Shown here piece after piece: positions 32,743 through 47,624 of a stretch of 64,000 nt of DNA. The stretch is from the IMG/VR virus record IMGVR_UViG_3300045051_000014; one strand, 5' to 3'. The position numbers and the translations under genes were made by a program. Below the pieces are notes generated by a model. That model had not been told where the DNA came from. It did not search any database and saw only the letters and a list, made by a program, of their open reading frames with translations. The DNA comes from a virus (Duplodnaviria; Heunggongvirae; Uroviricota; Caudoviricetes). Position 1 is the stretch's first letter. Every line of letters starts with the position of its first letter.

Positions 32743-34167
32743 ATGAACGCATCAGCAAAGAACGCATTTGTATCCGCAGCACTCTCAGTGCCGGTTGAGG
32801 CTCGTACTGAAAATGGTATGAAGGCTCAGAAGTCCACCATGTCCGCAATCGTAGACCTGTTCTACATCGTCGGATCTTCGCGTGGTAAGAATCTTTCGCG
32901 CCAGTTCGAATCGGCAATGCAGCAGGATGAAGATCTTGCGCTCCGTATCGCACTGTGGGCGCGTGACGCTCGCGGTGGTGCCGGTGAGCGTGAAGTGTTC
33001 AAGTTCCTCTTGACGCACCTTGAACAGTCGCGTCCGGACTTCCTGTTGAATTCGGGTTTCTTGGCAAAGGTGCCGGAACTCGGACGTTGGGACGACTTGC
33101 TCGTTCTGACTGAGCCACGCATCAAGGCGAAGGCATTCAACCTGATCAAGTCTGCGCTTGAGTCTGGCAACGGACTGTGCGCAAAGTGGATGCCACGTAA
33201 GGGCAAGATTGCGCGTGAGCTTCGCGAAGCATTCGGTATGTCGCCAAAGGCATACCGCAAGACTCTTGTTGGTCTTTCCAACACGGTTGAGCAGAAGCTT
33301 TGTGCGCGTGAATTCGACAAGATCGAATACTCGCACGTTCCTTCGCTCGCAATGTCGCGCTACATGAAGGCATTCTCCAAGAATGACGCAGAGCGTTTCG
33401 TTGCATACCGTGAGTCCTTGAAGAAGGGCGAAACGAAGATCAACGCGAAGGGTGTCTACCCATACGATATCATCAAGGCTCTTCGCCACGGTGCGGACTC
33501 CGCAGTGTGCGATGCGCAGTGGGATGCATTGCCTGACTACATGACTGACGCGAACGTTCTGCCTATGGTAGACGTTTCAGGATCCATGGAGTGTTCGGTT
33601 GGTGGCAACGCTAACCTGTCTTGCCTCGACGTTTCGCTTTCACTCGGACTTTACACTTCGGGACGTAACAAGGGTGCGTTCAAGGACATGTTCCTTACGT
33701 TCTCTGGCGACACGGAACTCAAGAAGGTCAAGGGTACACTCTCGCAGCGTATGGCTCAGATGAACTCTTCTGAGTGGGGCATGAACACGAATCTGCACAA
33801 GGCATTCGACCGAATCCTTGACGTTGCAGTAAAGGGCAACGTGCCACAGGCAGACATGCCAACGGTTCTGTTGATCATGTCGGACATGCAGTTTGACCAG
33901 TGTGCGAAGTACGATGACTCTGCTATGCAGATGATCGAACGCAAGTACGCTGCGGCAGGCTACAAGGTTCCTGTCATCGTGTTCTGGAACATCAGTGCCG
34001 GTGGCAAGGACAACTCGCCAGTATCCTTCAACAAGAAGGGTGTTGCGCTAGTCTCCGGTTGCTCGCCTGCAATCATGAAGGCTGTCCTCGCGGCAGACTT
34101 GGATGATATCTCGCCCGAGACAATCGTGCGCGATGCGGTCGCAATCCCACGGTACGACTACACCTAA
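32743..34167 (+). CDS. rsr: TROVE-domain Ro60-like (Rsr) RNA-binding protein with vWA/MIDAS C-domain
   Basis: 474 aa; HEAT-like TROVE region; MIDAS motif MVDVSGSMECSVGG; RBS AGGAAGGA; terminator downstream. Confidence 0.8.
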   Translation: MNASAKNAFVSAALSVPVEARTENGMKAQKSTMSAIVDLFYIVGSSRGKNLSRQFESAMQQDEDLALRIALWARDARGGAGEREVFKFLLTHLEQSRPDFLLNSGFLAKVPELGRWDDLLVLTEPRIKAKAFNLIKSALESGNGLCAKWMPRKGKIARELREAFGMSPKAYRKTLVGLSNTVEQKLCAREFDKIEYSHVPSLAMSRYMKAFSKNDAERFVAYRESLKKGETKINAKGVYPYDIIKALRHGADSAVCDAQWDALPDYMTDANVLPMVDVSGSMECSVGGNANLSCLDVSLSLGLYTSGRNKGAFKDMFLTFSGDTELKKVKGTLSQRMAQMNSSEWGMNTNLHKAFDRILDVAVKGNVPQADMPTVLLIMSDMQFDQCAKYDDSAMQMIERKYAAAGYKVPVIVFWNISAGGKDNSPVSFNKKGVALVSGCSPAIMKAVLAADLDDISPETIVRDAVAIPRYDYT

Positions 34168-41881: not shown

Positions 41882-42069
41882 ATTTTTCGGAGCGCGGTTA
41901 ATTCTCGCGTTCGAATACTGAGTCGGAAAAAGTCGGGGTTCAATTCCCTGTCATGCGCTTCGGTGTATGGTGGTGTAACGGCAGCACAGTTCCATTTGAG
42001 AGATTCGCGTCACCCGTCGCGACAAGCGAGGTCTGTAACAACAGGCTGAAATTACGGGTAATGAACAAT

Positions 42070-42153: not shown

Positions 42154-42228
42154 GGTCCCTTGGTATAACGGCTATTATGCGAAGCTGTCTACTTCGCGAA
42201 ACGGGTTCGACTCCCGTAGGGATCGCCA
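42154..42228 (+). tRNA. tRNA-Asp(GTC)
   Basis: acceptor ggtccct/agggatc, anticodon loop ctGTCta, T-arm acgggTTCGACTcccgt, CCA. Confidence 0.65.
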
Positions 42229-42388: not shown

Positions 42389-42396
42389 ATTACTAT

Positions 42397-42481
42397 GGTC
42401 AAGTATACCGTTAAAGACGCGGAACCGGCTGTAACCCGGTTGTCTCAGACTGGCTAGGAGCGTTACCTAGATTGACCACCA
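42397..42481 (+). tRNA. tRNA-Tyr(GTA)-like, long variable arm, non-canonical T-loop AGCGTTA
   Basis: anticodon stem accgg/ccggt loop ctGTAac; variable hairpin gtc-tca-gac; T-stem ctagg/cctag; one acceptor mismatch. Confidence 0.45.
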
Positions 42482-42491
42482 ATTCATCGTC

Positions 42492-42571: not shown

Positions 42572-42666
42572 GTTCCTGTGGTGTAACGGCAGCACTCCAC
42601 TCTTATAAGGTGGCAATGGCGGCAGATTACCGCATGGTCTAGGTTCGAATCCTAGCAGGAACACCA
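42572..42666 (+). tRNA. atypical 95-nt tRNA-like gene, anticodon ambiguous (TAT or GAT depending on which internal hairpin is the anticodon arm)
   Basis: perfect acceptor gttcctg/caggaac + ACCA, canonical T-arm ctaggTTCGAATcctag, D-arm gtgtaacggcagcac, but two internal hairpins (ccact-cttataa-ggtgg and gcgg-cagatta-ccgc). Confidence 0.45.
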
Positions 42667-42673
42667 GAACAAT

Positions 42674-42748
42674 GCCGGTGTCATCTAATGGCGAAGATGG
42701 TCGCCCGATTAGCGACTCATAAGGGTTCAAGTCCTTTCACCGGTACCA
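42674..42748 (+). tRNA. tRNA-Ile(GAT)-like (C33 instead of U33)
   Basis: perfect acceptor gccggtg/caccggt, anticodon stem gtcgc/gcgac loop ccGATta, T-loop TTCAAGT. Confidence 0.55.
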
Positions 42749-42927: not shown

Positions 42928-43002
42928 GCGGGTAAGGTGTTAATAGATACACGGCGGTCTTCCAAACCTCAGTTGTGGGCGCGATACCCACTACCCGCTC
43001 CA
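42928..43002 (+). tRNA. tRNA-Gly(TCC), T-loop CGCGATA
   Basis: acceptor gcgggta/tacccgc, loop ctTCCaa, discriminator U + CCA; resembles phage-type tRNA-Gly. Confidence 0.7.
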
Positions 43003-44165: not shown

Positions 44166-44241
44166 AGCGGAAGGGTGAAACGGTTTACATTCTAGCCTCA
44201 TAAGCTAGAGACATTGGGTTCGACTCCCATGACCGCTACCA
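44166..44241 (+). tRNA. tRNA-Met(CAT)-like with imperfect acceptor (5 bp + AA/GA mismatches at 6-67,7-66)
   Basis: anticodon ctagc/gctag loop ctCATaa, T-loop TTCGACT, ACCA end. Confidence 0.45.
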
Positions 44242-44333: not shown

Positions 44334-44407
44334 GTCCGATTAGCTTAAAAGTGAAGCACCGTGCTGATAACGCGGAGAAGTAGGAGCATTACCTACATTG
44401 GACACCA
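44334..44407 (+). tRNA. tRNA-Ile(GAT), T-loop AGCATTA
   Basis: acceptor gtccgat/attggac, D gctt-aaaagtg-aagc, anticodon ccgtg/cgcgg loop ctGATaa (canonical Ile loop). Confidence 0.6.
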
Positions 44408-44592: not shown

Positions 44593-44678
44593 GCGGAAGT
44601 AGCCTAGCGGTTAGGCACTTGCTTGCCAAGCAAGAGTGCGAAAGCCAAACGCGAGTTCGAATCTCGTCTTCCGCTCCA
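44593..44678 (+). tRNA. tRNA with anticodon GCC (Gly) but 86 nt with ~16-nt variable region
   Basis: perfect acceptor gcggaag/cttccgc, class-II-like D-arm gcc-tagcggtta-ggc, anticodon cttgc/gcaag loop ttGCCaa, extra agtgcgaaagccaaac before T-arm. Confidence 0.5.
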
Positions 44679-45279: not shown

Positions 45280-45439
45280 GCACGTATTTAGGGGAAGATC
45301 ATGAACTTCGAAAGAAACAGAGCATATTACTGGCGGCAGGCGCGAGCATGTTTCAAAGCCGGTTTCAAGTTCCTTCGAAGAGCAATCTTCCTTCCAAAAA
45401 GATAATGTCTCTTAAGCTAATCTAGTGAAAGCGCAGGTC

Positions 45440-45590
45440 TGAAAAGCCTGATAGGTTGGAGCGTAACCAACAGGGGACACCAGTTTCGGGATGTTTACAG
45501 CAAACCAAATACCTCGCCAAATCTGAGGGGCTGTCCAATGGGGACTGTGCGCTAGGGTTCGAATCCCTGCCTACTAGCACAACCATCCCG
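45440..45590 (+). ncRNA. tRNA-like / Y RNA-like module (ACAGCAAACCAAAT + T-arm-like GGTTCGAATCCC, no CCA)
   Basis: motif at 45497-45510; hairpins cctc..gagg, gtcc-aatg-ggac; TTCGAAT T-loop at 45557-45571 without matching acceptor. Confidence 0.4.
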
Positions 45591-46083: not shown

Positions 46084-46269
46084 ATGGCTGCGAAGAACGA
46101 TGTAACAGGTGATAGTATCAAAACTAAGACTGGCAATCCTGATGCGTATGCAAAGGGTTGGGATCGAATCTTCGGCAGTAAACGAACAAAGGACCGTACA
46201 CCTTCCGGTGAGCTTGCTGAACCGGTGCGCCGCAGGGCTGCGAACAAAGTACGGGCTAAGAACAATTGA
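46084..46269 (+). CDS. small basic protein (61 aa) nested between tRNA genes
   Basis: ATG with GGAG RBS 7 nt upstream; MAAKNDVTGDSIKTKTGNPDAYAKGWDRIFG... Confidence 0.35.
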   Translation: MAAKNDVTGDSIKTKTGNPDAYAKGWDRIFGSKRTKDRTPSGELAEPVRRRAANKVRAKNN

Positions 46270-46350
46270 TGGGTTGACGGTGCCGGTAACTGTCCCTAGT
46301 CTTTGAAACTAGTGCATTGCGCGTAGGTTCGACTCCTACCCCATCAGCCA
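46267..46350 (+). tRNA. tRNA-Gln(TTG) with enlarged D-loop and 10-nt variable region
   Basis: perfect acceptor tgatggg/cccatca, anticodon ctagt/actag loop ctTTGaa, T-arm gtaggTTCGACTcctac. Confidence 0.5.
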
Positions 46351-47332: not shown

Positions 47333-47624
47333 ATTTACTGAGTCGAGCTAACGCAGGCAACTGAGGAAGTTCGCGACTCACGCAGGAATCGTGTGGGAGC
47401 CGAAAGGCGTCTTACCACCGTGATATAGTGAGCAACACAAACAGAGCGTGGGAAATTCCTGCCTATACGTTCGGGTTGTGGCAAAGATGAATGTTAGCAT
47501 AGAACAGAATCGCGGCTACGGACTCAGTAATTCGAAATAGCTAACCCATACGTGTCAAAAGGATATGTCCGAAACAAGCGTAATTCGAATGAGGCTTGTT
47601 AGACGGTGGGTTGGCGGTACCTAT

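Follow-up and report, generated by a model that had tools for sequence, protein, structure and literature searches.

In Mycoplasma mobile, Lactobacillus and a few other bacteria, a class I tRNA-Ile with the anticodon UAU reads the codon AUA, and does so independently of TilS. Its variable loop is of the normal length of 4–5 nt; M. mobile has instead adapted its isoleucyl-tRNA synthetase (IleRS), which has Arg865 at the position of Trp905 of the E. coli-type enzyme (PMC3575796). The DNA analyzed, termed the window, is a stretch of 64,000 nt from a Caudoviricetes virus, IMG/VR record IMGVR_UViG_3300045051_000014. Positions 42572–42666 of the window encode a tRNA-Ile(UAU) that has the same UAU, A37 and A73 and presumably the same AUA-reading function, but its variable region is 25 nt (positions 42614–42638) and consists of a second hairpin with GAU in the loop plus a linker on each side. 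Alignments and pattern scans indicate that this GAU hairpin is conserved and defines a large tRNA family, a point that goes beyond the initial annotation of this DNA. A conserved second arm on tRNA-Ile(UAU) is unprecedented in the literature found: neither a long variable arm nor an arm with a GAU loop was found described for tRNA-Ile(UAU) in full-text literature, which included reviews of tRNA identity and of non-canonical tRNAs but few subscription journals, and an earlier description is possible.

The bacterial class II tRNAs (Leu, Ser, Tyr) share with this tRNA a paired extra arm between the anticodon and T arms and a core that includes the 15–48 pair. They are of other isotypes, however, and their 3' linker is 1–2 nt in length compared with 5–6 nt in the family. 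Class II variable-arm loops are typically 3–5 nt, whereas the family has a conserved loop of 7 nt and a 12–23 pair that is Ile-like. The anticodon and body of Leu, Ser or Tyr class II tRNAs are not matched by the window tRNA, with its UAU and A73. Its second hairpin is also atypical as a variable arm: the sequence of the 7-nt loop is fixed, and the linker on the 3' side has the length of a complete class I variable loop.

Three other types of tRNA have features in common with the window gene. The allo-tRNAs with the anticodon UAU (Mukai et al., PMC5389517) share the long variable arm, the anticodon and an occurrence in Acidobacteria and phages, and their compact tetraloop D arm resembles that of subfamilies B to D of the two-hairpin family described below. 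As reported in that source, they have an 8/4 or 9/3 acceptor/T stem geometry and G73 or U73, and they are Ser- or Ala-accepting or inactive, whereas the two-hairpin family has a 7/5 geometry and A73. Membership of the window gene in the allo-tRNAs was rejected, as its 7-bp acceptor stem and 5-bp T stem are fully paired and it has A73; its D arm (4-bp stem, 7-nt loop) also differs from the tRNA-Sec-like D arm of allo-tRNA, which has a long stem and a tetraloop. Nematode nev-tRNA-Ile(UAU) shares the variable arm and the UAU but is eukaryotic, and it is leucine-charged in vitro (PMC3333845, PMC4300185). The nuclease-evading phage tRNAs of T5 and other phages also come from phage arrays and have non-canonical bases beside the anticodon triplet, but those are ordinary class I tRNAs with point changes, none with a second, non-decoding anticodon-like hairpin (PMC10264068).

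ARAGORN, the check suggested in the initial annotation, calls a 95-nt tRNA-Ile(tat) at exactly positions 42572–42666. The Rfam tRNA model (RF00005) matches the gene from end to end, model positions 1–71; at 55.6 bits the match is well above the gathering score, which is 29, and its E-value in the window is 2.8e-9. In the Rfam alignment hairpin 1, which starts one nucleotide after the D stem and has a 5-bp stem and a canonical loop, is the anticodon arm, and a 22-nt insertion that includes hairpin 2 is placed in the variable region. The initial annotation had described a 7-bp acceptor stem, an ACCA end, a D arm and a T arm, and two stem-loops in the place of a single anticodon arm; every one of these features is found in the sequence. 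It had offered two explanations: the abnormally long variable region is borne out, and an insertion between the D and anticodon arms is disfavored, in that ARAGORN and the covariance model both select hairpin 1. It had left the anticodon as TAT or GAT. This is settled as TAT; hairpin 2 has neither U33 nor a purine at position 37. The gene is a real tRNA with the decoding anticodon UAU, and hairpin 2 is its variable arm.

The initial annotation had also raised the prospect that a covariance model would cleanly predict a standard class II tRNA. The score is indeed high, but Ile(UAU) does not belong to the class II isotypes, and in its 7-nt loop and 5-nt 3' linker the variable arm is unlike those of Leu, Ser and Tyr tRNAs. 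An intron was rejected, as the anticodon loop is intact at 7 nt, the extra 22 nt are 3' of the anticodon stem, and no Rfam intron family is found. A relationship to transfer-messenger RNA (tmRNA) or tRNA-Sec was also rejected on the basis of Rfam scans and the alignment to the tRNA model. A fold of the single 95-nt sequence gives a cloverleaf with both hairpins; the energy z-score of -1.44 is uninformative alone.

BLAST searches of the window tRNA, for near and distant matches, against 50,697 phage records gave no matches, and relatives were therefore sought with structure-anchored patterns in IMG/VR viral contigs and in one genome per prokaryotic species. The forward anchor, CTTATAA-N(19-45)-GGTTCGAATCC, constrains the UAU loop and the T loop only. 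It is present at a minimum of 120 viral loci. Among the matches listed, nearly all are tRNA(UAU) genes with a second hairpin, and the gap between the two loops is not evenly spread but is 30–32 nt in 86 of 120. The reverse anchor, CAGATTA-N(10-16)-GGTTCGAATCC, also has at least 120 viral loci, and the two-hairpin tRNA is found in 64 of the 71 new loci among the matches listed. The upstream loop in these tRNAs is NTTATAN, or CCTATAC in two sequences, with the anticodon UAU in every readable one. A scan that spans both architectures shows 35 class I genes and 85 long-gap matches, mostly of the family, among the matches listed. In the matches sampled, the two-hairpin form is thus about twice as common as the ordinary form and makes up about two thirds of the phage tRNA(UAU) genes with these motifs. 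The prokaryote genome scan gave 45 loci among the matches listed.

At least 153 distinct family sequences were gathered from the viral and genome scans, and A73 is present in all 153 sequences extracted. The family is defined by a UAU anticodon arm, a variable arm with a 7-nt loop nnGAUnn, a 3' linker of 5–6 nt and A73; the window copy has all four features. A profile hidden Markov model (HMM) made from 51 relatives, with the window sequence left out, finds positions 42574–42660 at 59.7 bits (E = 1e-17). The other tRNAs of the window reach at most 16.5 bits with this model and are aligned with a 19-nt gap at hairpin 2. The nearest relatives of the window copy are in loci L149, L038 and L220, which either have a near-identical variable region or agree with it in the acceptor, D and T arms.

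Comparison of 52 aligned relatives (alignment A1) shows that the five-helix structure is maintained. The helices are 97.5% paired, versus 65% in shuffled sequences and 34–50% when the partner strands are slid, and there are 395 doubly changed cells, with covariation in all five helices. In hairpin 1, UAU is present in 52/52 sequences, U33 in 51/52 and A37 in 52/52, and all five stem pairs display changes on both sides. In hairpin 2, three of the four stem pairs display changes on both sides, and 97% of the cells are paired. Its loop is characterized by A at the place of U33 (52/52) and U at the place of purine 37 (51/52). Covariation also links base 15 to the final nucleotide of the 3' linker, the two being A-U in 44 sequences and G-C in seven, with one exception; the window copy has A15 and a U as the last linker base. 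This covariation implies that the Levitt pair and the canonical tertiary core are kept. In 26 of the 52 sequences, which are members with a canonical body, the first acceptor pair is a G1-U72 wobble (columns 1 and 97 of A1); it is G1-C72 in the window copy.

Hairpin 2 of the family has a covarying stem of 4–6 bp and a 7-nt loop with a central GAU. The stems vary by lineage (CCGC/GCGG, GCCC/GGGC, GCAC/GTGC, GCTC/GAGC and others), and the loops are CAGATTA, TAGATTT, TAGATTG, CCGATTA, CTGATTA and CAGATAA. In a set of 63 unique long-arm tRNA(UAU) sequences, chosen without regard to hairpin 2, an nnGAUnn loop on a stem of three or more base pairs is present in 57, compared with 1.3% of shuffled variable regions. 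The compensatory changes in the stem and the enrichment of the GAU loop indicate that hairpin 2 is under selection. Confidence in the structural and family claims for the two-hairpin tRNA is high.

Some features of the locus could suggest a damaged or chimeric tRNA pseudogene, in which the second hairpin came from a chance insertion or a local duplication: there is a D-arm fragment 600 nt upstream, and several odd tRNAs are present in the same array. However, all stems are intact, the CCA is encoded, the Rfam score is high, and over 150 distinct sequences, from phages and bacteria that are unrelated, have the same architecture and show compensatory changes. There is hardly any chance of a pseudogene, which was rejected on the conservation data.

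Table 1. Coordinates of the two-hairpin tRNA gene, its parts and the adjacent tRNA gene in the window
Feature	Position	Strand	Details and basis
Whole tRNA gene, tRNA-Ile(UAU), class II-like	42572–42666	+	95 nt, CCA encoded; ARAGORN, Rfam, family HMM
Acceptor stem, 5' strand GTTCCTG	42572–42578	+	Perfect pairing with CAGGAAC at 42656–42662; all 7 pairs covary in 52 relatives
D arm, stem GTGT/GCAC, loop AACGGCA with G18 G19	42581–42595	+	Sequence; D stem 100% paired in alignment A1
Hairpin 1, anticodon arm CCACT-CUUAUAA-GGTGG	42597–42613	+	UAU at 42604–42606, U33, A37
5' linker of variable region, CAATG	42614–42618	+	Sequence; 2–5 nt in most relatives
Hairpin 2, variable arm GCGG-CAGAUUA-CCGC	42619–42633	+	GAU at 42625–42627; covarying stem
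3' linker, ATGGT	42634–42638	+	Last base is position 48, Levitt pair with A15
T arm CTAGG-TTCGAAT-CCTAG	42639–42655	+	Sequence; Rfam alignment; alignment A1
Acceptor stem, 3' strand CAGGAAC, discriminator A73 (42663), CCA	42656–42666	+	42663–42666 is A73 plus CCA; sequence
Class I tRNA-Ile(GAU), true anticodon arm GTCGC-CCGAUUA-GCGAC (C33, U37)	42674–42748	+	ARAGORN; Rfam 46.3 bits

Many uncultured phages carry the family, whose members fall into four or more body types. Canonical D arms characterize type A, which includes the window copy and those of L149, L038 and L220. In types B, C and D the D arm is compact, with 4 bp and a UGGU tetraloop, and A73 is kept. Type B is 100% identical to a site in the cultured cyanophage S-SRM01 (Kyanoviridae) and also matches S-SKS1 and S-CRM01. 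The copy at positions 1501–1588 of L273 corresponds to 32944–33031 of S-SRM01 (MW015081.1), a T4-like cyanophage, where it is a lone type B copy among hypothetical genes, near baseplate and tail-fibre genes; type B is unannotated in all three cyanophages. Type A is found in Lactobacillus phages, where it is labelled tRNA-Ile in ENFP1 and 3-521 and is unannotated in LpeD and Lpa804. Because family copies are either unannotated (S-SRM01, S-SKS1, S-CRM01, some Lactobacillus phages) or annotated as plain tRNA-Ile, tRNA inventories and arguments from codon usage are incomplete for these phages.

About half of the loci from the genome scan are of Pyrinomonadaceae or other Blastocatellia (Acidobacteriota), some of them on contigs of 0.25–3.4 Mb. 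The Blastocatellia copies are located in arrays of 20–26 tRNAs, and one of these arrays is bordered by ordinary cellular genes that encode an AIR-synthase-like protein, MerR and a trypsin-like protease. The chromosomal arrays in Pyrinomonadaceae/Blastocatellia metagenome-assembled genomes, each of 20–26 genes and mostly with U34 and G34 tRNAs, are at positions 218–3522 of L229, 68–3185 of L217, 1613–7244 of L218 and 4137–7973 of L203. L229 and L217 each have one CAU tRNA that is initiator-like, with C1 opposite A72.

The body of the family tRNA resembles tRNA-Ile, with a D stem that is Ile-like rather than of the Leu, Ser or Tyr type, as judged by sequence comparison. U12-A23 is present in 71% of the family and in 88% of tRNA-Ile(GAU), versus 0–22% of Leu, Ser and Tyr tRNAs from the same loci. 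A37 follows U36 in the family, which is the context of N6-threonylcarbamoyladenosine (t6A). A nearest-isotype comparison with the arm removed gave a mixed result; some subfamilies are closest to tRNA-Ile(GAU), and the window copy is ambiguous. The minor body determinants reported for tRNA-Ile of E. coli are a U-A pair at 12–23, C4-G69 and C29-G41. The window copy has C4-G69, but G12-C23 and A29-U41.

These body features bear on the possibility that AUA is recoded, i.e., that the long arm makes the tRNA a substrate of leucyl-, seryl- or tyrosyl-tRNA synthetase (LeuRS, SerRS, TyrRS). Such tRNAs do exist, namely nev-tRNA-Ile(UAU) (PMC3333845, PMC4300185) and allo-tRNA(UAU) (PMC5389517), and A73 is common to tRNA-Leu. 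But A73 speaks against SerRS, most tRNA-Ser in these loci having G73; the 12–23 pair of the family is Ile-like and not of the Leu, Ser or Tyr type; the acceptor/T geometry is 7/5 and not 8/4; and the conserved GAU would be left without a role. Recoding is regarded as very improbable. There are 36 AUA codons in the 44 open reading frames of the window, none of them in the genes for ribonucleotide reductase, NAMPT or the Ro-like proteins, and they are too rare for a comparison of codon sites.

E. coli-type IleRS charges tRNA-Ile(UAU) inefficiently. Trp905 of this enzyme stacks on base 34 and is conserved where tilS is present; the single substitution W905R corrects the charging, and the Arg865 of M. 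mobile is that organism's own adaptation to UAU (PMC3575796). Among the loci listed from the reverse-anchor scan, the GAU arm is strictly coupled to the UAU anticodon. Family copies are found within arrays of 20–30 tRNA genes, sets that are apparently made for translation. Tentatively, and with somewhat less than even confidence, the two-hairpin tRNA is proposed to be a working elongator tRNA that reads AUA and in which the GAU variable arm may serve as a surrogate identity element for IleRS.

Under this proposal, hairpin 1 with its UAU would decode AUA on the ribosome, and as the wobble base is U and not C, there would be no need for TilS and lysidine from the host. Hairpin 2 would present, on its short stem, the GAU that the major tRNA-Ile has as its anticodon. 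Host IleRS, which reads G34-A35-U36, would recognize this triplet on the variable arm, along with A73 and an Ile-like body, and would attach isoleucine. Such a tRNA would be an AUA decoder portable to any host, suited to phages and mobile tRNA arrays. Expression of the tRNA, its charging with isoleucine and the contact of IleRS with hairpin 2 are the steps that we infer. Because the invariant GAU is strictly coupled to UAU, and because a mobile element cannot alter the IleRS of its host, a surrogate anticodon appears to be the simplest reading. The loss of U33 and A37 in the mimic would fit a loop that is recognized but is neither used in decoding nor modified.

LeuRS and IleRS are in the same synthetase subclass, and the closest analogue of the proposed mechanism is the archaeal tRNA-Leu/LeuRS system. 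In Haloferax volcanii the leucine identity of tRNA-Leu depends on bases in the loop of the long variable arm (PMC9976931). The enzyme and the amino acid are different, however, the archaeal loop is not a copy of an anticodon, and nothing comparable is reported for IleRS in the literature found. A surrogate-anticodon role of the GAU hairpin, if true, would make this the first natural tRNA found in which the triplets read by the synthetase and by the ribosome are on separate arms. The hairpin would represent a new kind of identity element and would explain how mobile elements can decode AUA whatever the host, with neither TilS nor an adapted IleRS. It would also be a ready tool for synthetic biology, where a codon could be reassigned with the charging intact.

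Several observations weigh against such a role for hairpin 2. Class I synthetases bind the face of the tRNA opposite the variable region, and therefore either a flexible C-terminal domain of IleRS or an alternative stacking of the hairpins would be needed. The loop type of hairpin 2 is also that of the true anticodon loop in class I tRNA-Ile(GAU) genes. The window copy has G12-C23 and not U12-A23, and AUA accounts for only 5% of the Ile codons in the window. Lactobacillus phages retain the GAU arm; the IleRS of lactic acid bacteria is said, to go by the title of a paper cited in PMC9976931, to recognize UAU. Finally, t6A37 is a strong determinant for IleRS in E. coli (PMC9976931), and the mimic has U at this place.

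The stacking of the hairpins leads to a further possibility, that the tRNA has two working anticodon arms. A five-way junction would toggle between stacking of hairpin 1 and of hairpin 2 under the D stem, and the tRNA would be charged via GAU and read AUA, or would read all three Ile codons. Hairpin 1 is one nucleotide from the D stem, as an anticodon arm would be, and hairpin 2 is followed by a 5-nt linker that behaves like a full variable loop before the T stem. The spacing thus puts each of the two hairpins in register with one half of a normal tRNA. The module of hairpin 2 is, moreover, a real anticodon arm in class I tRNAs. The array of L229 is also of relevance: its 26 tRNAs cover all codon boxes except AUU/AUC, and there is no other GAU-loop hairpin within the arrays of L229, L218 and L217. 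The gap in L229 could be filled either by superwobble of U34 or by decoding with hairpin 2.

On the other hand, hairpin 2 has only 4 bp, and it has A at the place of U33 and U at the place of purine 37, where the canonical bases are found in 97% (U33) and 98% (purine 37) of the 2145 tRNAs in the fetched loci. Many arrays, including that of the window, have a separate tRNA-Ile(GAU); decoders of AUY are supplied by the hosts anyway; and U34 superwobble would also fill the AUU/AUC gap. Two working arms are considered distinctly improbable. If this were nevertheless true, a single gene could fill the whole isoleucine box in minimal sets, e.g., the 26-gene array of Blastocatellia.

The tRNA-Ile(GAU) gene listed last in Table 1 is the immediate downstream neighbor of the two-hairpin tRNA and has an anticodon arm of the hairpin 2 type. 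The module xCGC-CNGAUUR-GCGx is the real anticodon arm in four class I tRNA-Ile(GAU) genes, those of the window, L203 (6372–6444), L181 (2861–2936) and L186 (1900–1974), with the loops CCGAUUA, CCGAUUG or CUGAUUA, which have C33, U37 or both. C33 is present in 12 of 67 tRNA-Ile(GAU) genes that accompany the family, versus 58 of the 2145 tRNAs of all types in the fetched loci. The C33 loops UCGAUAA, CCGAUAA and ACGAUAA are seen in tRNA-Ile(GAU) genes adjoining the family in L196, L205, L208, L222, L223, L227, L149, L168 and L191. These base changes that flank GAU may answer a separate pressure, e.g., that of tRNA-cleaving defences. Phage tRNAs escape such defences by changes in the anticodon loop (PMC10264068, PMC11555353).

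The presence of the hairpin 2 module in true anticodon arms, together with the enrichment of C33, keeps alive a reading of hairpin 2 in terms of decoy or evasion. The arm would shield against, or act as a decoy for, anticodon nucleases or toxins that target tRNA-Ile(GAU), or would be the relic of a nuclease-resistant arm; AUA decoding would be unchanged and the arm irrelevant to charging. The four companion genes with the module and the frequency of C33 fit this explanation. Against this, the coupling to UAU tRNAs is strict, for which a decoy gives no reason. The hairpin was not seen free-standing among the scanned loci, and no nuclease that targets a GAU loop was identified in the present analysis. 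An anti-defence arm is judged unlikely.

The strict coupling to UAU is relevant to one more proposal, that the arm is a handle for fidelity or modification. On E. coli ribosomes, AUG is read in addition to AUA when the UAU anticodon is unmodified, and some solution to this is needed (PMC3575796). The arm could stiffen the tRNA against wobble reading of AUG by U34, or it could recruit or exclude an enzyme that modifies U34 or A37, and its confinement to UAU tRNAs is consistent with this. However, stiffening does not need an invariant GAU triplet. To our knowledge, no enzyme recognizes such a loop. A handle of this kind is also viewed as an unlikely explanation of hairpin 2.

The window is part of a large phage genome and has matches to PHROG families; it encodes ribonucleotide reductase, NAMPT, a Ro/TROVE-like RNA-binding protein and a DegT aminotransferase. 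BLAST found no close relative of the window among 50,697 deposited phage genomes. The tRNA array is at approximately 41.8–48.1 kb and has 32 genes called by ARAGORN and several found by Rfam only. The Ro60/TROVE-like protein (DUF2828 + DUF7788; PHROG 850) is encoded at positions 32743–34167 (+), about 8 kb upstream of the array.

The initial annotation had noted that the D-arm string of the two-hairpin tRNA is duplicated upstream. The 17-nt string TGGTGTAACGGCAGCAC (positions 42579–42595) does have an exact second copy, where about 0.02 matches are expected by chance; the copy is at 41971–41987 (+) and not at 41965–41985 as first given, a difference of a few bases. It lies in a 188-nt spacer (41882–42069, +) between tRNA-Glu and tRNA-Asn. 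The spacer has a T-arm-like segment, GGGGTTCAATTCCCT, followed by the 17-nt D-arm copy and then by other hairpins, such that the pieces are out of order. No tool made a tRNA call in this spacer, and the Rfam E-value scan found nothing in it.

Several other RNAs of the array are unusual. Positions 42396–42483 (+) form a tRNA-like cloverleaf with a 7-bp acceptor stem, UGGUCAA/UUGACCA, followed by CCA, and a loop CUGUAAC (GUA, Tyr). The variable region is long, the T loop, AGCGUUA, is odd, and a normal D arm is missing; the cloverleaf is not called by ARAGORN or Rfam. The array is otherwise without a tRNA-Tyr. tRNA-Gly(GCC) at 44593–44678 (+) has a 13-nt variable insertion that contains a GAAA segment. 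tRNA-Gln(UUG) at 46267–46350 (+) is 84 nt, with 6 bp in the D stem, 4 bp in the anticodon stem and a small hairpin in the variable region, and is a weak match to the tRNA-Sec model. tRNA-Asp(GUC) at 42154–42228 (+) has U37 in the loop CUGUCUA. The tRNA matches found by Rfam only, with 36.7–48.9 bits, are at 42928–42999 (E-value scan only), 44166–44238, 44334–44404 and 45407–45479, all on the + strand.

A 194-nt RNA sequence is found at positions 47336–47529 (+), between tRNA-Leu(gag) and tRNA-Arg(cct). It matches the Rfam archaeal RNase P model from end to end with 40–48 bits, below the gathering score of 84, and with an E-value of about 1e-10. A regular-expression search over the fetched loci and one viral scan gave no relatives, only a chance hit. 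The sequence keeps the core-like motifs GAGGAAGUUCGC, AGAUGAAUG and AACAGAAUCGCGGCUAC, and most of the central region of the model is missing. The motifs correspond to the conserved regions CR-I, CR-IV and CR-V, and the missing part to the specificity domain. This RNA may represent a minimal RNase P RNA within a phage tRNA array.

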